From positions 82,000 to 145,999 of the forward strand of contig JACPEV010000003.1 of NCBI GenBank assembly GCA_016183325.1: DNA of 64,000 nt, read 5' to 3'. Within the stretch, counting starts at the first letter, position 1. The number at the start of each line of letters is the position of its first letter. The stretch comes from Candidatus Curtissbacteria bacterium (GTDB lineage: Bacteria; Patescibacteriota; Microgenomatia; Curtissbacterales; GWA2-41-24). A program made the translations under genes and the position numbers. The notes under the pieces were generated by a model, which ran no database searches, had not been told where the DNA came from, and worked only from the letters and a program-made list of their open reading frames with translations. Below, one piece after another: positions 3,442 to 57,972 of the stretch.

Positions 3442-4884
3442 ATGAAACGAATTTACATAACCACTGCTATCCCTTACGTTAATGCGGCGCCGCATATTGG
3501 TTTTGCCCTTGAGGCAGTGCAGGCGGATTGCCTGGCGAGATTTTATAGACTTTTGGGATATGACGTCTATTTTGCTTCGGGGACGGATGAAAATTCCCTG
3601 AAAAATGTGCAGGCGGCGGAGGCTGAAGGTTTGCCGACACAAGAATTGGTGGACAAATACGCCAAGCAATTTGAAAACTTAAAAGACGCGCTTAATTTAA
3701 CGTGGAATACTTTCAATAGGACCAGTGCCAAACACCATTTTGATGGCGCACAAAAATTGTGGAATCTTTGTAATAAAGAAGATATCTATAAAAAAAATTA
3801 TCGGGGACTTTATTGTGTTGGGTGTGAAGTCTTTTATGCCCAAGATGAAATTTCTGACGGAAAATGTCCAGACGGGCATACAAACATCGATGAGGTTGAG
3901 GAGGAAAATTACTTTTTTGCTCTCTCCAAATATCAAAGATACTTGGAGACGCTGATTAACACGGATCCTTCGACTTCACTCAGGACAGGTAAATTGCGGA
4001 TTGTACCGAATACGAAAAAAAATGAAGTTTTATCTTTTATTAAACAAGGACTTGAGGATTTTAGTATTTCGAGATCCCGAGAGAGAGCTCGGGGTTGGGG
4101 CGTGCCGGTGCCCGGCGACGAATCTCAGGTAATGTATGTATGGTTCGATGCTCTGACAACTTACTTGACGGCTTTGGGATTTTCGTCAAACGATGAACTT
4201 TATAAACAATATTGGACTAACAATTCCAATCGACTGCATGTTATTGGTAAGGGGATTATCAGGTTTCATGCAGTTTACTGGCCGGCGATGCTGGCATCGG
4301 CAGGGCTTCCCCTTCCCGCGATCGAATTTGTACATGGATATGTGACAGTTGATGGTCAAAAGATTTCTAAATCGCTTGGGAATGTGATCAACCCGTTTGA
4401 TTTAGTTTCTAAATTCGGCGTCGATCCGGTTCGATATTATTTACTTCGGGAAATTCCGGCGTATGGGGACGGGGATTTTTCGATTGCAAGATTTAAGGAT
4501 TTATACAATGGGGAGTTGGCAAATGGGCTTGGGAACTTGGTGGCGCGGGTGGCGCGACTGGCTTCTGATACAAGTCTGAGTTTGCCTGAAAAAAAGAATT
4601 TTAAGTTTAAAAAAACAGTTTCTGATAATTTGAGGATATTTAAATTTGATCAAGCTTTGCTTTCGATATGGGATGATATTTCGCGACTTGATAAAAAGAT
4701 CAATGAGGAAAAACCTTGGGAGCTCGCGGGTAAAAACCTTAAGAAATCGATAACTCCAATTGCCCAAGAGATTCGCGAAATTGCTTTTAACCTTGCGCCG
4801 TTTTTACCGGACACATCGAGGAAAATTCTTGATCAGTTTACGGGGAAAGTTTCGTCCGAAAAGCCTTTATTCCCCCGCATATGA
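3442..4884 (+). CDS. metG: methionyl-tRNA synthetase
   Basis: Class I aaRS motifs PHIGF (HIGH) and KISKS (KMSKS); the N-terminus aligns with MetRS. Confidence 0.9.
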   Translation: MKRIYITTAIPYVNAAPHIGFALEAVQADCLARFYRLLGYDVYFASGTDENSLKNVQAAEAEGLPTQELVDKYAKQFENLKDALNLTWNTFNRTSAKHHFDGAQKLWNLCNKEDIYKKNYRGLYCVGCEVFYAQDEISDGKCPDGHTNIDEVEEENYFFALSKYQRYLETLINTDPSTSLRTGKLRIVPNTKKNEVLSFIKQGLEDFSISRSRERARGWGVPVPGDESQVMYVWFDALTTYLTALGFSSNDELYKQYWTNNSNRLHVIGKGIIRFHAVYWPAMLASAGLPLPAIEFVHGYVTVDGQKISKSLGNVINPFDLVSKFGVDPVRYYLLREIPAYGDGDFSIARFKDLYNGELANGLGNLVARVARLASDTSLSLPEKKNFKFKKTVSDNLRIFKFDQALLSIWDDISRLDKKINEEKPWELAGKNLKKSITPIAQEIREIAFNLAPFLPDTSRKILDQFTGKVSSEKPLFPRI

Positions 4885-5549
4885 AAAAGCAATTTAAGGT
4901 TTTTGCTTGGGATTTCCACGGAACCTTGGAACAAGGGGTTGAAGTAGGATTTTGGCATATTTTGAAGGCTATAGCGAAAAAGCGCGGAATAGCCGAGAAT
5001 TTTAAGTTGTCTGAAGTTAGAAAGCTCTATGGAGTCACGGTTGCCAATTATCTACGGCATTTTTTCCCAGAAAGCAACGAGGCAGAGATTCGTGAAGTGA
5101 TGAAAGACGTGGCAACTATTCAAAATCAATCACATTTAAAAAAATATGTTCGTGCGGCACCTGGAGCAATCGAAGTTTTGGGCAGGATTCGCGCGGCAGG
5201 CCACAAGAATATTGTTCTTTCTAATTCACATCCAGATCACATTAAGCCGCTTATTAAAATTGTTGGCATGGCCGAGTTAATCGATGAGGTTTATGCCATT
5301 GACAGGCACTACACGCACAAGAAATTCGATCCTGTTGTTGAAAAGACAAAAGTTTTAAAGCGAATTAAAAAACAAGACCAGCTCGGTCGCAGTCAGTTAA
5401 TTGCCATCGGTGATCGTGCCAGCGACATAAATGCAGGGATAGCGGCAGGAACGGTGACTTATCAGTTCCTTCGGCGTGGTTTTCCGATTGACGAGACAGA
5501 TGCCGACTATAAAATATATCATTTGAGTGAGATTTTGAGAGAAATTTAA
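4881..5549 (+). CDS. HAD-superfamily hydrolase-like protein
   Basis: AWDFHGTL (degenerate motif I) and IAIGDRASDINAG (motif IV); 4-bp overlap with metG. Confidence 0.55.
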   Translation: MKKQFKVFAWDFHGTLEQGVEVGFWHILKAIAKKRGIAENFKLSEVRKLYGVTVANYLRHFFPESNEAEIREVMKDVATIQNQSHLKKYVRAAPGAIEVLGRIRAAGHKNIVLSNSHPDHIKPLIKIVGMAELIDEVYAIDRHYTHKKFDPVVEKTKVLKRIKKQDQLGRSQLIAIGDRASDINAGIAAGTVTYQFLRRGFPIDETDADYKIYHLSEILREI

Positions 5550-45188: not shown

Positions 45189-45220
45189 CGCCTATATTCT
45201 AACCCCAATGTAAACCATTG

Positions 45221-45292
45221 CGCCCTTGGCGGGACTCGAACCCACACAACAGGATCCGGAATCCTGTGGTCTTTCCATTAGCCTACAAGGGC
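45221..45292 (-). tRNA. tRNA-Arg (anticodon CCG)
   Basis: Manual cloverleaf: acceptor GCCCTTG/CAAGGGC, anticodon loop TTCCGGA, T-loop TTCGAGT; 72 nt, no encoded CCA. Confidence 0.7.
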
Positions 45293-45301
45293 ATTTTAGG
45301 G

Positions 45302-45388
45302 CGGAGAGGGAGGGATTCGAACCCTCGATAACCTTGCGGCTATACCCGCTTTCCAAGCGAGCGCACTAGGCCACTATGCGACCTCTCC
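45302..45388 (-). tRNA. tRNA-Ser (anticodon GGA), type II
   Basis: Acceptor GGAGAGG/CCTCTCC, anticodon loop TTGGAAA, long variable arm, T-loop TTCGAAT. Confidence 0.65.
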
Positions 45389-45523
45389 AATGGCACATAA
45401 TTATATCTCACACAACATTTGATGATGGACGATTGAAGCTAGATACTAGATTTAAGAAACTAGAGGATAGAAGTTGGAAAATCCATCCTCAAACTTCTAA
45501 CTTCAAGGTCCATCTTCTAGTTT

Positions 45524-50237: not shown

Positions 50238-50393
50238 TTAAAGAAAAAATTCATACTTTCAGCTTCAGAAACTCTGCAAAGTTAGAGGAAAGACTAAAAC
50301 TGAATCTGACAGAATTTATCCGAGTTAGAACTAGATGAAAATGCTGTCTTAACGCCCCGATTGGATCATGCTTTTGACCAAAATCTCACTCTG

Positions 50394-50480
50394 CGGAGGC
50401 GGCAGGATTCGAACCTGCGACCGAGTTTCCCCGGTAGTCGTTTTCGAAACGACCGCACTAGTCCACTATGCGACGCCTCC
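50394..50480 (-). tRNA. tRNA-Ser (anticodon CGA), type II
   Basis: Acceptor GGAGGCG/CGCCTCC, anticodon loop TTCGAAA, T-loop TTCGAAT. Confidence 0.65.
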
Positions 50481-50507
50481 CAAGTTTACCCTGAGTTTAT
50501 CGAAGGG

Positions 50508-50580
50508 TGCGCCCGACAGGACTCGAACCTGTAACCGTTAGCTCCGCAAGCTAATGTTCTATCCAGTTGAACTACGGGCG
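50508..50580 (-). tRNA. tRNA-Arg (anticodon GCG as read)
   Basis: Acceptor GCGCCCG/CGGGCGC, anticodon stem TTAGC/GCTAA, loop TTGCGGA, T-loop TTCGAGT. Confidence 0.55.
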
Positions 50581-50749
50581 CAAATCGCGGCGCTGTAATT
50601 ATAGCTCAGTTGATAAATCTCCTCCATCCCCGCGCACTCGGAGGAATTTTTAAATAACAATATTAACAAAATATGCAACGATCATTGAATAAAATGTAAT
50701 TTTGGTCTACTTGGAAATTAGAAATTTGGAATTGAAAACTCCTCGAGTT

Positions 50750-51493: not shown

Positions 51494-51874
51494 TCAATAC
51501 GGAGATTCTACTGAGAGTGAGGGTATAAAATCAAAATCCTTTTGATTTTTAGTTAAAAGTCTTGCTTTATATTCAAGTGCTGTTGAAGCAATTAGGCTAT
51601 CTGCTAAAGCTAAAGAATAATTAAGATGAAATTTTTTAATCAACTCAAAAGAGCGCTTACTAATTTTGTCAGTAATCTCCATTACCGAAAATTTCGAAAT
51701 TAAATCTTCTGCAATTTTTTGTGCTCTTTTATCCCTAGCCCCCTTCACAAACTCTATTGCTGTTACAACAGAAATAGAATATTTATGCACCTTATAGGTA
51801 GAATTCAGAAATTGTTGAGCTTTAGTAAAACCGCGTGCATAGTCGACAATTACATCAGTATCAATAAGCATCAT
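51494..51874 (-). CDS. vapC: PIN-domain toxin VapC
   Basis: MMLIDTDVIVDY…. Confidence 0.8.
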   Translation of the reverse strand: MMLIDTDVIVDYARGFTKAQQFLNSTYKVHKYSISVVTAIEFVKGARDKRAQKIAEDLISKFSVMEITDKISKRSFELIKKFHLNYSLALADSLIASTALEYKARLLTKNQKDFDFIPSLSVESPY

Positions 51875-52137
51875 TGAAACAAAAGGGGTCGTTTATTCCT
51901 CGGTAGCTTAGCGAGCACATCTAGTGCCTGGCCAATTTCGTCTTGATACCTCTCCCAACTCTGCCTAATTTTTTTAAAATCAGTTTTAAATTGTCCCATT
52001 GTAATTGGCTTTAGAAGTAATCCTTGTTCTGTCTGTTCGACCTCAAGCAATGAGTTCTCCTCTAGGTTAAGATTTTTTCTCATTTTATTAGGAATAGTGA
52101 TTTGTCCTCTAGGCAAAATTCTCACAACTGTCTGCAT
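51871..52137 (-). CDS. AbrB/MazE-family antitoxin
   Basis: RGQITIPNKMRKNLNL. Confidence 0.7.
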   Translation of the reverse strand: MQTVVRILPRGQITIPNKMRKNLNLEENSLLEVEQTEQGLLLKPITMGQFKTDFKKIRQSWERYQDEIGQALDVLAKLPRNKRPLLFQ

Positions 52138-52276
52138 TCTACAGATATGATAATCGGAAAATCAGATTTTTTCAATAACTAAAATAGTGGAAACGCTGCG
52201 GTGCCTAGTTGATTGAAAATGGTGAGTTTATCGAACCACTATGTTGGAACCTTCTTTAAGAATTATTTTTCAGATG

Positions 52277-52513
52277 CTATTTTTTGGGTTTAGCAAAATA
52301 AATTACCCAACTACCAAATGTTAACGCAAGGAATACAACAAGGAATACTAGTAAGGTATTAATTCCTCCAGGTATGATGCCTTCTAATACTTCGCTCCTC
52401 GAGATACCTCCTTGTGTTGGATCAGCAACAGTTTTTGAATATTGAAAAACGACGACAAGAAGTACAGCATAGAAAATAGTCAATATAGTAATTAACAATG
52501 CTATATTCTTCAT
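52277..52513 (-). CDS. small two-TM membrane protein
   Basis: ORF plus TM. Confidence 0.4.
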   Translation of the reverse strand: MKNIALLITILTIFYAVLLVVVFQYSKTVADPTQGGISRSEVLEGIIPGGINTLLVFLVVFLALTFGSWVIYFAKPKK

Positions 52514-52562
52514 ATTTCAAATTGGACCCTATTAAGATTAAAGTCCTAATGTTATTAACTGT

Positions 52563-52640
52563 GCGGAAAGCAGTAGATGACGTTAGAACTTTTTACGCAC
52601 AATCCCTTGCTTTCCCACAGTACATTATACCAAGTTTTCC
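52563..52640 (-). promoter_or_regulatory. repeated promoter/leader element copy C (TGGTATAAT plus conserved leader with GGAAAGCA…TGCTTTCC closing stem)
   Basis: See 47837-47913. Confidence 0.55.
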
Positions 52641-52696
52641 AGGTGATATCAGCCAGTGATATTGACATATGATATAATAGTTACTAGAATACATTT

Positions 52697-52978
52697 ATGT
52701 TCAATACAAATATTATCCCAGCCAGAAACCTTCAAAAATCTTATAAGTCTATTATTGAAAGAGTTAAAACTAAAAAGAATGCAATAGTCTTAACCACTAA
52801 TAAAAAGCCTCAGGCTGCTATTGTTAGTCTTGAGGACTTAGACAGAATCCAGCAAGCTAAAGCCATGCAGTCTTCTCTAGACATTCTTAAGTTGGCAACT
52901 GAAAGCAAAGAAGAACTAAAAAACCTACCAGCCGATTTGCGCAAAAGGGCAAACAAAATTTTATACAGCATAAAGTAA
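52697..52978 (+). CDS. Phd/YefM-family antitoxin
   Basis: YefM-like N-terminus. Confidence 0.65.
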   Translation: MFNTNIIPARNLQKSYKSIIERVKTKKNAIVLTTNKKPQAAIVSLEDLDRIQQAKAMQSSLDILKLATESKEELKNLPADLRKRANKILYSIK

Positions 52979-52980
52979 AT

Positions 52981-53403
52981 ATGGCAAAGAGCGTTGTGGT
53001 TGATTCAGACGCAATCTTTGCTATTTACAATCCCAACGACCCACTAAACACTCAAGCAACTCAGACTTTCCAGCAGTTGATCGCCCGTGAATTTCAGCTT
53101 ATTTATCCTGTAACGGTTCTTTTTGAAGTAATCTCACTATTCCAACGTGTTTTACCAACACCAGCAGTAACTAAAAAACTTATAGATATGATTAAAAATG
53201 ATCAGTTTCTAGTTCAAGCCATTGATAGCGATATATTAAAAAAATCAGCAGAATTGTTTGACCCTACCGGAAGTAAGAAAAATACTTTAATTGATTGTTC
53301 AGTAGTTATTGTTGCTAAAAAGATAAAAGCTAGTGGCGTTTTTGCCTATGATAGTTTCTACACCAAGCAAAGTCTAAAATTAGCTGAAGATTTAATTGGT
53401 TAG
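52981..53403 (+). CDS. vapC: PIN-domain toxin
   Basis: VVVDSDAIFAIY… PIN. Confidence 0.75.
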   Translation: MAKSVVVDSDAIFAIYNPNDPLNTQATQTFQQLIAREFQLIYPVTVLFEVISLFQRVLPTPAVTKKLIDMIKNDQFLVQAIDSDILKKSAELFDPTGSKKNTLIDCSVVIVAKKIKASGVFAYDSFYTKQSLKLAEDLIG

Positions 53404-53571
53404 AACTTTTTGCAAGAAAGTAAAATAAAGCATATTTAGGTTCCAAAACCATTTATAGTTATAGAAAAAGCAAAATCTGAAGCTGATAAAATTTTGTCCG
53501 AGTTAGAACTCGATGAATATGCGCACTTGACGGCCCAATTGGCCTCTATTTTCTCCCAAAATCTCACTCTG

Positions 53572-53656
53572 CGGAGAGGGTGGGATTCGAACCCACGGTA
53601 GCTTGCGCTACATTCGTTTTCAGGACGAACGCACTAGCCCACTATGCGACCTCTCC
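53572..53656 (-). tRNA. tRNA-Ser (anticodon TGA), type II
   Basis: Acceptor GGAGAGG/CCTCTCC, anticodon loop CCTGAAA (C33 is unusual), T-loop TTCGAAT. Confidence 0.6.
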
Positions 53657-53661
53657 AAGTG

Positions 53662-53745
53662 CGGAGGGTGTGGGAGTCGAACCCACTCTGGACTTTCGCC
53701 CAGCAAGTTTAGCAAACTTGTGCCTTACCGTCCGGCCCACCCTCC
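53662..53745 (-). tRNA. tRNA-Ser (anticodon GCT), type II
   Basis: Acceptor GGAGGGT/ACCCTCC, anticodon loop TTGCTAA, T-loop TTCGACT. Confidence 0.65.
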
Positions 53746-54731
53746 CAAAATGTATGATTTTTTAAAAAGAAACTCTTTTTAAAATTCCCTGTTCCAATTT
53801 CTTTAAGATAGCTCTTAACTTCGCTTTTATTATATAACCATACTTTATATCTACCATCATTCTTGGGCTTGTAACCTAGGCCCCTTAATCCTTCATGAAC
53901 AAAATCCAGAAGCGGCAAAGATCGATTCGTAAAAACAATCTTTGGATATGAATATAGCTTCCCATTTACTTTATAGCGATGCATCGCAAAACAACCGTCT
54001 GTATCAACTAAACCGCGAATGCATGCTTTAATATATTCAGGCTTCAACAAAATCCATTCTGGAACTCCAACTTGTAAAAGTACTTTATTACCTCTTCTGA
54101 GACCTTTTTGCTCTAGGTATTTTATCAGATTAATACTTGAAACCATAACTCTTACGACTTTCTGAGTTTTATGTCTAAATAGACTTGGTTTTAAACCAAA
54201 AAGTTTCTCTATTAAATCGCGCACATAAAAAACATACTCCTCATCAACTTCACTGTTCAGGTAGATAACACATTGAAAATTACTTAATCCTCCATCACCA
54301 AGTAAAATTCCAATAAATTCTGCTAAATTCTCGTTTTCCTCGGGAATATTTATGTTTTTCGCCAAATTTCCGAGAACTCTTCTTTTTTTAATTCCATTTA
54401 AACCGCCCCTTCTACGTCCTTCAGGAGTGCCCAAATCCCCATGCAATTTAAAACGAACCATAGCACCTTTGCGACATATCTCTAGTTTTCTAGCAAACCA
54501 GCGGTCAATTAAGATTTTCTCCTGTTCTGGAAAGAGAACTTCATATTTTTTTGCAAGCAACTTCACAGCTTCAGAAGGTGGGCACAACTTTTCCCTCCTC
54601 CAATCAAAAAGGGTTCTTCGATGCACACCCACTTCGTCTGCAAGCTGTTTCGGAGAAAAACCACTATTCCTAACTACTCGCTCAAAAAAGTCTCTCTGCT
54701 CTCCAGTTCTAAATAAAACTCTCTGTTTCAC
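53709..54731 (-). mobile_element. free-standing double-motif LAGLIDADG homing endonuclease with an N-terminal HTH; its 3' end runs into tRNA-Ser(GCT)
   Basis: Two LAGLIDADG motifs (LAEFIGILLGDGGL and IRGLVDTDGCF); the last ~12 codons are encoded by the 5' half of the tRNA gene. Confidence 0.75.
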
Positions 54732-54837
54732 AAATATATTTCTAAGCTACTTCTCCATTTTACCAGAATATATCCCCTTAACCAAGCGCAATCGCCAATC
54801 CCCAAACAGGCTGTACCTATTTTGGTAATATAATCTT

Positions 54838-56358
54838 GTGACAAAATTTTTCGAAAAATCCCTAATCATTCTAATTTTGCCACTAATTGTCCTTGCAGTT
54901 GAAACATTTACCCTCTTTCTCAAAAATCCACCCGTATGGCCGGATGAAGCAATCTACGCTAATATTGCCAGTAATTGGCTCACTGAAAAAAGATTAGGTC
55001 CGGATATTTGGCTTGACGCTTATCCCGGAGCAACTGACCATTTTTATTCATATCCTCCTTTATTTTTCTTAATAATTGGAGCTTATTTTAAACTCTTCGG
55101 CGCTTCTATCGAATCTCAAAGACTGATCAGTCAAACAGCAGCAATTGTCTTCTTAATTGTCTTTTTCTTTTTAGTTAAATCTATCTTTCCAAACAAAAAA
55201 GTTCATGTCTTATTTATCTTACCTCTAATCGCCCTCATTCTAGATCCGTTCTTCTCGCGGGCTTCCAGAATCGCCAGACCGGAGATGACAGTTACCCTAA
55301 TTGGTTCTCTTGGCTTTCTTGCTTTTATCAAATCCAGAAATTCACACAACCCAGCCATAAGTCACCTTCTTACAATAATTTGTGGGATTCTAACTAGTTT
55401 TGCGCTTTTGACTCACTTTTTGGGCGGAATGATTTTTACAATCAGTATCCTGTTAAATTTCCTCTTCCAGGATAAATTTAGGCTTATCAAATCTAAAAAT
55501 TTTTATTTGTTTATTCTTTCATTCCTAACTGCACCCTTCTTATACTTCCTCTCAATCCTTCCCAATTGGACCATATTTCAATACCAATTACTTACATACT
55601 CTAAAGCCGTTTCCGAATATTCTTATTTCGTCTTAAGCCTTATCTATAGCACTAACACCGTGCACCAAATACTTATAATCACCTACATCGCAGCAACTGT
55701 ATCATTTATCATCAAAACAGCAATAAACAAATCCCAAGAATTAATCCCTTTTGCCATAATTCTTTGCGTATCTTGGATAGCCGTTGTTTATTATAAAGAA
55801 GTTTGGTATTTTTTTTATGTTATCCCTTGGATTTATTTATCCGCATCATTTATTTTTATAGAATTTTTTACTAAATATTTTAAAAACTTTATAAAACTGC
55901 AGAAGAGAAATTTTTTTCATCTGGTGGCAATTGAAGCCCCAATTATCCTCACAAGTCTCATGTTTATGGTGGGTCTATTTTACACACTTAAATTAATTTA
56001 TACCTATTTGCCCAATAAATACTCATACCATCTTTTCGAAAAACGTATACTTGATGTCATTCCCCAAAATAAAACAGTTTTTCTTTCTTCCATCCCGGAT
56101 CCTTATTTTGCTCTTAAATTAAGGGGTACAAATACCCTTTATGAATTTCCTGTTGTGACAATAGAAAAAGAAAAATTTCTAGAGCTTCTCGACAATTCCG
56201 ACTACATTATATTTACCAATGTTTACAGCAAAACAAGCAGTCTACTCCCTGCATATATCAGCAAAAATGCCCAAAAAACTATTACCATTGGATCAAAAGA
56301 TCAATACCAAACACATGTTTTCGAACTCAAACCTAAAGACCAAAGACAAAAACCTTGA
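54838..56358 (+). CDS. GT-C membrane glycosyltransferase (GT39/ArnT-like)
   Basis: VWPDEAIYA DE-motif after TM1; polytopic. Confidence 0.65.
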   Translation: MTKFFEKSLIILILPLIVLAVETFTLFLKNPPVWPDEAIYANIASNWLTEKRLGPDIWLDAYPGATDHFYSYPPLFFLIIGAYFKLFGASIESQRLISQTAAIVFLIVFFFLVKSIFPNKKVHVLFILPLIALILDPFFSRASRIARPEMTVTLIGSLGFLAFIKSRNSHNPAISHLLTIICGILTSFALLTHFLGGMIFTISILLNFLFQDKFRLIKSKNFYLFILSFLTAPFLYFLSILPNWTIFQYQLLTYSKAVSEYSYFVLSLIYSTNTVHQILIITYIAATVSFIIKTAINKSQELIPFAIILCVSWIAVVYYKEVWYFFYVIPWIYLSASFIFIEFFTKYFKNFIKLQKRNFFHLVAIEAPIILTSLMFMVGLFYTLKLIYTYLPNKYSYHLFEKRILDVIPQNKTVFLSSIPDPYFALKLRGTNTLYEFPVVTIEKEKFLELLDNSDYIIFTNVYSKTSSLLPAYISKNAQKTITIGSKDQYQTHVFELKPKDQRQKP

Positions 56359-57103: not shown

Positions 57104-57135
57104 CTAAAAAGGTCTCCTTCGGGAGACCTTTTTCT
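57104..57135. terminator. bidirectional rho-independent terminator (AAAAAGGTCTCC-TTCG-GGAGACCTTTTT)
   Basis: 7-bp GC stem, UUCG tetraloop, A-run and T-run on either side. Confidence 0.8.
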
Positions 57136-57972
57136 GTGGAGATGGCCGGGTATGGCCCGGCGTCCAAGATAAACTTATCAAAAACTTCTACAAGCTTAGT
57201 TAATCTTTAAAATCTCGCCTCACCTCTTTGTCGATTAACAAACGGAAACAAGGCAAAGATCTAAATTTCAGGCTAAGGTTAGATCAAAACCAAAGTCCTA
57301 CTCTCGGCTAAGTTTGTGCCCCAAATAACCTCACCGAGAAAAGGTTAAAGAGACAAGCTCAAAGCTTAAGCTTATGCAAAAGCTAGAGCTGGACTTGGGC
57401 TAAAGGTTTCCCTCAAAGCCGCAAGACCTCGTGCAAATAAGTTTCTTGCACTTAAATTTGATTCAAAGCTTGACGCACTTTAGAATCGTATTCGGCTTGC
57501 AGTTTTTAATGTGCTATCCTGTCGAAACAATACATCCCCGTACTTTAAGGAGACAACTTGCGGTTTTCTCCCTACGGGTCGATCTTTTAGATCAGACCTT
57601 AATATTACTCTTTCCCTTTAAAGGATAAATTTAGACTGGCGGAGCCAGATTTAAATTTATCTTGAAGAACAAAAACAAATTATAGCAGTGTTTGGCCTCA
57701 AAAGCAAATTTTTGGAGTGTCGTAACTCTTACAAAGTCGGTGGTTGGTGATATGGATGCATTTGGTCTGTTTGGTTTTAACAGACTGAGGCGATCTGATC
57801 AAACCTGTGCATGCCTGTATACTGAGTCAGAAAGAAGAAGTTTAAGACCGCTTCTTGTGATTTAAATCCCTTTGTTGTTTTGTACCTGATCTTACTTCTG
57901 CCAATTGCTCTTTCCGTGGCATTGTTGGTTGTGGGCAAATCATCTCTTGGATGTTTAAGGTATGCTGTATAG

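Follow-up and report, generated by a model that had tools for sequence, protein, structure and literature searches.

A free-standing LAGLIDADG endonuclease gene beside tRNA-Ser in Candidatus Curtissbacteria: member of a family that may spread by intronless homing

The window, a 64,000-nucleotide stretch of contig JACPEV010000003.1 from a Candidatus Curtissbacteria bacterium, carries an open reading frame (ORF) that encodes an endonuclease of the LAGLIDADG superfamily and ends inside a gene for tRNA-Ser(GCU). The only observed niche of the family to which it belongs is the immediate 5′ flank of tRNA-Ser genes. Comparison of occupied, empty and decayed sites suggests that these genes spread by intronless homing: the free-standing endonuclease would recognize the DNA that encodes the D-arm of tRNA-Ser, and its gene would travel with a resistant, functional allele of the tRNA. 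We assign a probability of about 0.78 to this reading.

The protein is deposited as hypothetical protein HYU92_01420 of a metagenome-assembled genome (MAG) from the Microgenomates group of the candidate phyla radiation (CPR). It has 572 homologous protein clusters (best <1e-150) and is therefore the product of a real gene, not of a chance ORF. No host protein surrounds the ORF, which stands alone with its own start codon. The 340-residue sequence scores 34.1 bits against Pfam LAGLIDADG_3 (PF14528; cut-off 22.5) and remains sub-threshold for LAGLIDADG_1 and LAGLIDADG_2. A helix-turn-helix (HTH) domain, HTH_3, passes marginally over residues 23–65, with 23.7 bits against a cut-off of 23. Conservation was assessed in 85 homologues. 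The invariant columns are A137, G141, L144, G145, D146 and G147 in the first LAGLIDADG motif and C237, G240, L241, D243, T244, D245 and G246 in the second. The acidic residues D146, in LAEFIGILLGDGG, and D245, in IKACIRGLVDTDG, belong to the invariant strings LGD146GG and DTD245G, and all 27 family-invariant residues are kept in the window protein. An AlphaFold2 (AF2) model with a predicted local distance difference test (pLDDT) score of 92 comprises a helical N-terminal domain (residues 1–125), a two-domain LAGLIDADG core (130–320) and a disordered tail (321–340). The predicted core has the pseudo-dimeric alpha-beta-beta-alpha-beta-beta-alpha fold. The top PDB matches of the predicted structure are LAGLIDADG enzymes throughout, with WhiA at rank 30, and the nearest solved structures found by Foldseek are I-Tsp061I, the TliVMA intein endonuclease, I-AniI and I-DmoI. 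These four share the fold of the core (E 2e-11 to 8e-7) and its two LAGLIDADG helices with an acidic residue on each; they differ in being intron- or intein-encoded, in lacking the N-terminal HTH domain of about 125 residues and in sequence, with identities of 13–25%. As modelled, the ORF is an intact, active-looking gene for a two-domain LAGLIDADG homing endonuclease. The first-pass annotation, made from the sequence alone, had described just such a free-standing enzyme with an N-terminal HTH and two motifs, and had tied its identification to the Pfam families LAGLIDADG_1 and LAGLIDADG_3; with LAGLIDADG_3 above its cut-off, a helical N-terminal domain in the model and no intron RNA nearby, that description stands.

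Relatives are encoded in at least 576 species genomes of GTDB, and the hosts include many classes of CPR/Patescibacteria as well as Omnitrophota and Nitrospirota. For comparison, 80 loci from GTDB species genomes were combined with the window, giving 81 loci (individual loci are designated by L numbers). In 74 of these a tRNA-Ser gene starts between −106 and +64 nt from the stop codon, on the same strand. Its isoacceptor is gct at 38 loci, gga at 15, cga at 11, tga at 7 and ‘act’ at 3. Of the other loci, two have a tRNA that the parser overlooked, three or four are cut by the end of the contig, and two more are rearranged and still lie beside tRNA-Ser; L078 has no tRNA-Ser within the 113 nt left to its contig end. 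A tRNA for another amino acid is found at this position in none of the 81 loci, though tRNA-Arg genes are interleaved in the arrays. In a neighbour-joining tree the protein clades sort by the isoacceptor of the downstream tRNA-Ser and not by host taxonomy. Copies of gct type and of gga type both occur in Curtissbacteria (the window and L073, respectively), and both likewise occur in Daviesbacteria. It is quite likely that the endonuclease gene is mobile and has a specific tie to tRNA-Ser genes. Full-text literature searching revealed no account of a link between LAGLIDADG genes and tRNA-Ser in bacteria. What appears new is a chromosomal, tRNA-Ser-specific LAGLIDADG family that has an N-terminal HTH and is linked to a variant tRNA allele.

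Several members of the family have unusual surroundings. In one Microgenomates group, ARAGORN reports beside the endonuclease gene a class II ‘tRNA-Ser act’ with the anticodon ACU, followed by a normal tRNA-Ser(GCU) (L026 4825–4909, L036 4991–5079 and L068 2735–2817; also L007, L011, L022 and L047). These may be extra tRNA copies brought by the element, the anticodon of which has since changed. On a Paceibacterota contig (L029 1–420 and 4001–4984), two endonuclease copies lie on opposite strands less than 4 kb apart, with tRNA-Ser(tga) between them. Protein P0092 has an N-terminal extension of 70 residues (...GGIRTHGEQEAHIGFQDQRTRPLCDPS...) that resembles the antisense translation of a tRNA gene, and is probably an over-extended gene call across a divergent upstream tRNA. 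This is not a phage family: a scan of IMG/VR gave four weak or partial matches, of which only L143 is a clear relative. There, on the predicted viral contig IMGVR_UViG_3300025715_000112, the relative (285–1146) is followed by tRNA-Ser(gga). This contig could be a mis-binned CPR fragment or a possible transfer vector.

Relatives that possess the tRNA-Ser pair and lack the ORF, for which the first-pass annotation had proposed to look, do exist: the gct-then-tga pair occurs both with and without the endonuclease gene in other genomes. The gene order ComF – Ser(gct) – Ser(tga) – Arg(gcg) – Ser(cga) – NUDIX – Ser(gga) – DnaG is common to the window and L073. In the window the endonuclease gene occupies the gct site, in L073 the gga site; each is therefore empty where the other is filled. 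In L133 the site before tRNA-Ser(tga) is filled; L108, L110 and L129, which have flanks 81–88% identical to it, are empty there, and six further contigs that match these flanks have no copy of the gene. A metagenome scan with the D-arm and anticodon pattern of the window tRNA retrieved 62 contigs, and in four of them the gene or a remnant lies upstream. About 40 CPR-like empty sites have a clean TATAAT box 7–12 nt 5′ of the tRNA. Decayed copies are also found. L119 retains a scar of about 150 nt beside a tRNA identical to that of the window, the L147 copy is without some 50 residues of the HTH region, and the L133 copy has one stop and one frameshift; in Nitrospira, the L153 copy is frameshifted and the L154 remnant is reduced to 75 codons. 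These scars and pseudogenes fit a cycle of invasion, degeneration and loss.

Two sets of alleles indicate what is transferred. When L133 is compared with the empty alleles, similarity stops exactly at the end of tRNA-Ser(gct) and resumes a few nucleotides (at most about 40) past tRNA-Ser(tga). The tRNA-Ser(UGA) of L133 replaces the resident one exactly, and it is Parcubacteria-like, as is the type of protein encoded beside it. Since the tRNA beside the L133 gene is not the resident one, the transferred unit includes tRNA-Ser. The second set comes from nine marine Nitrospira-like genomes with 92–94% identical flanks and the order serS – [gene] – tRNA-Ser(UGA). One haplotype is found in the five alleles with the gene or a remnant and another in the four gene-free alleles, and the linked haplotype spans the 3′ end of serS to tRNA position 57. 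A gene-bearing example is Nitrospira sp. DJ (L020; gene at 3995–5002, tRNA at 5013–5100), and a gene-free one is Ca. N. allomarina (L150; tRNA at 4053–4140). Alleles with the gene or a remnant encode a SerS C-terminus HGLDRIALK[QSR], against a different ending that is 2–4 residues longer in gene-free alleles. Before the tRNA, the former have the gene, from 10 nt after serS, and the latter a spacer of about 270–710 nt (268 in L150). In the tRNA, the D-arm reads T-AGGA-AAGCGGTTTAA-TCCT in alleles with the gene or a remnant and T-GCTA-GAGTGGTCGAA-TAGA in gene-free ones, the D-arm allele of the gene-free genomes being GGAGGGGTGCTAGAGTGGTCGAATAGACC. The two 88-nt tRNAs show 12 differences, 10 of which fall in positions 9–27; the D-stem changes from CTA/TAG to GGA/TCC with pairing kept. 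The other two differences form one compensatory pair in the variable arm, and the acceptor, anticodon and T arms are identical. The concentration in the D-arm is significant (hypergeometric p = 1e-6; 7.6e-5 when corrected for the choice of window).

The same Nitrospira locus holds other mobile DNA. Genes or fragments of genes for serine recombinases, tyrosine integrases and DDE transposases are found around the serS – tRNA-Ser locus in L151 (4384–6284), L152 (1–671), L153 (4516–5199) and L154 (3520–3790). In L154 most of the endonuclease gene has given way to an integrase fragment. This locus is a hot spot for mobile DNA in general.

A similar trend is seen more widely. Among pairs of tRNA-Ser genes with at least 88% identity outside the D-arm, the D-arms themselves show an identity of 0.73–0.78 where a linked tRNA is involved and of 0.85 in unlinked pairs (Mann–Whitney p = 7e-4; the pairs are non-independent). 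Metagenome tRNAs that had been fetched by their D-arm pattern were left out of this comparison. The window tRNA has its acceptor and T arms in common with the tRNAs of L003 and L005, which accompany another protein lineage, and differs from them in the D-arm. The D-arm types of tRNA-Ser(GCU) are GGGCCGGACGGTAAGGC in the window, GTCGCATAGTTGGTCCATTGCG in L073 and GACTCAGCCGGTTACGAG in L003. Because linkage to tRNA-Ser is maintained in very different flanks, the enzyme is expected to recognize a site within the tRNA itself. The candidate target is the D-arm, as the sole part of the tRNA that differs substantially between the Nitrospira alleles; on these comparisons the balance tips slightly towards it as the putative recognition site.

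The proposed mechanism has three steps. (i) In an element-free genome, the enzyme would cut the DNA that encodes the D-arm of tRNA-Ser. (ii) Repair of the break would copy the endonuclease gene and the adjacent tRNA-Ser from a carrier genome (co-conversion). (iii) The linked tRNA, with its different and still base-pairing D-arm, would presumably escape cleavage. Neither an intron nor an intein would be needed, as the essential tRNA is left whole. Of the two origins that the first-pass annotation had offered, the tRNA-targeted mobile insertion is thus the one favoured by the strict linkage to tRNA-Ser, the empty sites, the decayed copies and the linked tRNA allele.

The overlap of gene and tRNA is incidental. 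The first 37 nt of tRNA-Ser(GCU) are also the last 37 nt of the ORF (53709–53745, comprising 12 codons, ...WEGGPDGKAQVC, and TAA), and the stop codon falls in the anticodon loop. The tRNA-Ser(UGA) gene follows after 4 nt on the same strand. Both points had been reported correctly. The tails of homologues vary with the tRNA: many close ones end in EGGPDGKAQVC, some in GGVA or GGVR, and others stop earlier. The endings differ because each is the 5′ end of a tRNA in translation. In 37 of 74 relatives the ORF terminates within the tRNA, with overlaps of 4–106 nt. Read-through of the last 12 codons is a by-product of the closeness of gene and tRNA. The earlier term ‘fused’ is therefore misleading for a disordered tail of tRNA-dictated sequence that overlaps the tRNA in only half of the relatives. 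Nor is the ORF a fixed feature of the position with a distinct stop before the tRNA, as it is missing in many relatives.

The window tRNA-Ser(GCU) has features of its own. Read by eye, it apparently carries G for the near-universal U at position 8, and its D-arm is short (GGAGGGT-GG-GCC-GGACGGTAA-GGC). With about 60 metagenome contigs carrying a tRNA of this type, it is a natural variant.

A second tRNA-like segment is found at the other end of the gene. In most clades a −10 box is followed by 15–26 nt that resemble tRNA-Ser positions 1 to about 20–26 and lie just 5′ of the start codon or overlap it; in the Parcubacteria type, the ATG corresponds to tRNA positions 7–9 of this upstream piece. 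Clear tRNA-derived pieces of 19–26 nt are present in L072, L062, L014 and L023. In 26 of the 81 loci the motif GGWRNNNTNGCNNAR is present in the 80 nt that precede the start, 127-fold over background. Some clades are without the piece and have their own TTGACA-TAnnAT promoter. In the window, a consensus promoter scan found no excess of sites in this region over shuffled sequence and did not report the TGGTAAAAT box listed in table 1. Two simple accounts of the upstream piece were rejected. It is not a recent copy of the adjacent tRNA, being no closer to that than to other tRNA-Ser (permutation p = 0.36–0.45), and is therefore old or was carried with the element. It is also not a mere ribosome-binding site, since the spacing from its GGAG... 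to the start codon (1 or 15 nt) is unfit. The piece ends in the D-loop and would fit an ancestral break there.

A −10 box stands beside the tRNA in 27% of filled sites against 54% of empty sites, a difference only suggestive of co-transcription. In Nitrospira the gene takes the place of the whole spacer upstream of the tRNA. Given these two observations, gene and tRNA(s) are probably co-transcribed, the gene lying between promoter and tRNA in many lineages and apparently in the window too. If so, silencing by the host would be hard. Where the stop codon lies inside the tRNA, it may be speculated that RNase P cleavage would leave a messenger RNA without a stop codon.

A broader extension of the proposal, an arms race with tRNA-Ser D-arms, is put forward tentatively and falls somewhat short of even odds. 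Each endonuclease lineage would cut one D-arm variant and spread with a resistant tRNA-Ser, the cassette moving within and between phyla. Horizontal replacement of essential tRNA genes in this way would account for the unusual D-arm diversity of tRNA-Ser observed in CPR bacteria, Omnitrophota and Nitrospira. As the gene lies between promoter and tRNA and often ends within the tRNA, RNase P would sever the stop codon from the joint transcript, and rescue by transfer-messenger RNA (tmRNA) could keep the endonuclease at a low level.

Several points weigh against homing at the D-arm. The D-arm argument comes mainly from one clade, Nitrospira, joined by a statistical trend among non-independent pairs, and the Nitrospira difference could simply mark a foreign donor segment and not a determinant of resistance. 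In the lineage of the window, no allele was found that lacks the gene and has near-identical flanks: remnants are present in both L119 and L147, and the nearest empty site, in L073, has a quite different tRNA. The D-arm of the window is shared by about 40 gene-free sites, which fits resistance and the absence of targeting equally well. The upstream piece is not specially similar to its own tRNA, and its origin is uncertain. Finally, the neighbour-joining tree is rough, and several MAG taxon labels look unreliable, for example ‘Gammaproteobacteria’ and ‘Planctomycetia’ among third-party annotation (TPA) records.

Some of these points would suit a gene that is only a passenger. On this account the gene would be, or have been, mobile, and its position would reflect the general attraction of tRNA hot spots for mobile DNA, or vertical inheritance with many losses; the enzyme would not recognize tRNA-Ser, and the D-arm differences would have hitch-hiked. 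The integrase and recombinase genes adjoining the Nitrospira tRNA-Ser, an upstream piece that does not stem from the adjacent tRNA and the many gene-free sites with the D-arm of the window are all compatible with it. The account is nevertheless unlikely, as it leaves unexplained why tRNA-Ser is used exclusively despite the tRNA-Arg genes in the same arrays, why in three or more phyla the gene shares the strand of the tRNA in nearly all cases and keeps to within about 100 nt of its position +1, and why protein clades track the isoacceptor. It also fits poorly with tRNA differences that, in Nitrospira, are concentrated in the D-arm with pairing kept.

A domesticated host factor is a still poorer candidate. 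WhiA, a domesticated transcription factor, combines a LAGLIDADG fold with an HTH domain; it is generally described as having lost the catalytic residues, as carrying the HTH at its C-terminus and as conserved throughout its clade. A protein of this kind might regulate the tRNA-Ser operon or aid in tRNA-Ser processing and be kept for the benefit of the host, and the HTH domain, the operon-like position upstream of tRNAs and the presence of WhiA among the structural matches point in this direction. In contrast to WhiA, the window family keeps both catalytic Asp residues invariant, has its HTH at the N-terminus and is patchily distributed, occupying about 10% of comparable sites. Pseudogenes and scars are frequent, and close relatives manage without the gene. 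Domestication is accordingly rated very improbable.

The other origin offered by the first-pass annotation, a group I intron that formerly split tRNA-Ser and left the ORF behind as it decayed, is barely credible: upstream orphan tRNA 5′ pieces do end in the D-loop, and LAGLIDADG genes are known from introns in cyanobacterial tRNA-Arg(CCU) and CPR rRNA genes (PMC13011429, PMC11270868), but every informative locus has a complete tRNA downstream, the gene is preceded by a −10-like box and begins with a start codon of its own, and the group I intron structure that was to be sought around the ORF is missing. Rfam gives no group I or group II intron match in the whole window at gathering thresholds, nor in 53300–55100 up to E = 5, where the permissive run returned the two tRNAs and chance matches alone. 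Orphan 3′ tRNA halves downstream of the linked tRNA were matched in 4 of 67 loci, which is the chance level; a simple split-tRNA model was rejected on this count.

Among known systems, homing by the proposed route can be set beside several others. Integrative elements that target tRNA genes rely on tyrosine integrases and leave a duplicate of the tRNA 3′ end, and the tRNA stays functional. Like them, the window element has an essential tRNA gene as its landing site, with the tRNA functional afterwards; unlike them, it is without an integrase, lies at the 5′ end of the tRNA and would move by break repair. The insertions in CPR rRNA genes (PMC11270868) and the group I introns in tRNA genes (PMC13011429) involve the same host group, the same enzyme superfamily and conserved RNA-gene targets. 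Those endonuclease genes sit inside the RNA gene and need splicing or processing, whereas the tRNA beside the window gene is intact and the gene is external to it. There is no reference to tRNA-Ser in either paper, and no mention of free-standing copies beside tRNA genes was found in them. Intronless homing by free-standing endonucleases is established (PMC3984707). A close parallel is T4 SegB, a free-standing GIY-YIG enzyme encoded in a tRNA gene cluster, which recognizes a tRNA TpsiC motif and spreads neighbouring tRNA genes (PMC2330249). The premise of the first-pass annotation, that homing endonucleases normally reside in introns or inteins, was therefore too strong. With SegB the window family shares a free-standing endonuclease gene among tRNA genes and, probably, tRNA genes that are carried along. 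It differs in belonging to the LAGLIDADG superfamily, in being chromosomal and not phage-borne, in its specificity for tRNA-Ser, in its place directly 5′ of the tRNA and in recognition that apparently involves the D-arm and not the TpsiC motif.

If homing with a replacement tRNA is confirmed, a selfish nuclease could persist in ultra-small bacteria with streamlined genomes, and do so without an intron or intein, by coming together with a functional allele that takes the place of an essential tRNA. This would provide a mechanism for horizontal tRNA replacement and for fast, pairing-preserving evolution of one tRNA arm, with consequences for tRNA-based phylogeny and for the annotation of tRNA genes in metagenomes. 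It would also mean that a large natural family, with hundreds of diverged members and likely targets that can be read from neighbouring sequence, is available as raw material for meganuclease engineering.

Table 1. Features of the endonuclease gene and adjoining tRNA genes in the window.
Feature	Position	Strand	Basis or remark
tRNA-Ser(GGA), no endonuclease gene; empty site by comparison with L073	45299..45389	minus	NUDIX – tRNA – DnaG order
tRNA-Ser(UGA), in conserved Ser/Arg tRNA array	53571..53656	minus	ARAGORN; Rfam 55.5 bits
tRNA-Ser(GCU), intact, D-arm type GGGCCGGACGGTAAGGC	53661..53745	minus	ARAGORN; Rfam tRNA 48.7 bits
HTH-LAGLIDADG homing endonuclease gene, free-standing, 340 aa	53709..54731	minus	GTG start 54731, TAA stop 53709–53711
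C-terminal tail, disordered, non-conserved (residues 321–340 and stop)	53709..53771	minus	AF2 pLDDT 63 down to 49
Second LAGLIDADG motif IKACIRGLVDTDGC, residues 234–247, catalytic D245	53991..54032	minus	Conservation in 85 homologues
First LAGLIDADG motif LAEFIGILLGDGG, residues 136–148, catalytic D146	54288..54326	minus	Conservation in 85 homologues
N-terminal helix-turn-helix region, about residues 11–62	54546..54701	minus	HTH_3; AF2 helices 11–23, 27–34, 38–45, 53–62
Orphan piece GGAGAAGTAGCTTAG, resembles tRNA-Ser 5′ end	54742..54756	minus	10 nt 5′ of GTG start, directly after TGGTAAAAT
Extended −10-like box TGGTAAAAT, putative promoter	54757..54765	minus	Read by eye; similar −10 boxes in relatives

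The wider neighbourhood of the gene is an array of tRNA genes that all lie on the same strand and run Ser(gct), Ser(tga), Arg(gcg), Ser(cga), Ser(gga), Arg(ccg) (45220–45389, 50393–50582 and 53571–53745). It comprises all four tRNA-Ser isoacceptors and two tRNA-Arg genes, and recurs in compact or expanded form in many CPR loci (e.g. L048, L050, L073, L114 and L133). Toxin–antitoxin pairs lie between the tRNA pairs of the window (51494–53403): MazE/PIN at 51494–52137 and Phd/PIN at 52697–53403. L147 has a similar Phd/PIN pair in the corresponding place. The interval from ComF to the endonuclease gene contains, on the opposite strand, a gene at 54838–56358 for a 506-residue membrane protein of the PMT_2 glycosyltransferase family. 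L073 lacks it here, with 37 nt separating ComF from the tRNA, and L147 has a small Phd antitoxin gene instead; the PMT_2 gene is a separate insertion or deletion beside the element. A tmRNA gene (57134–57539; Rfam 106.5 bits) is located 2.4 kb upstream of the element. The order tmRNA – ComF – ... – tRNA-Ser is also found in L119, and SmpB is encoded upstream of ComF in L147.

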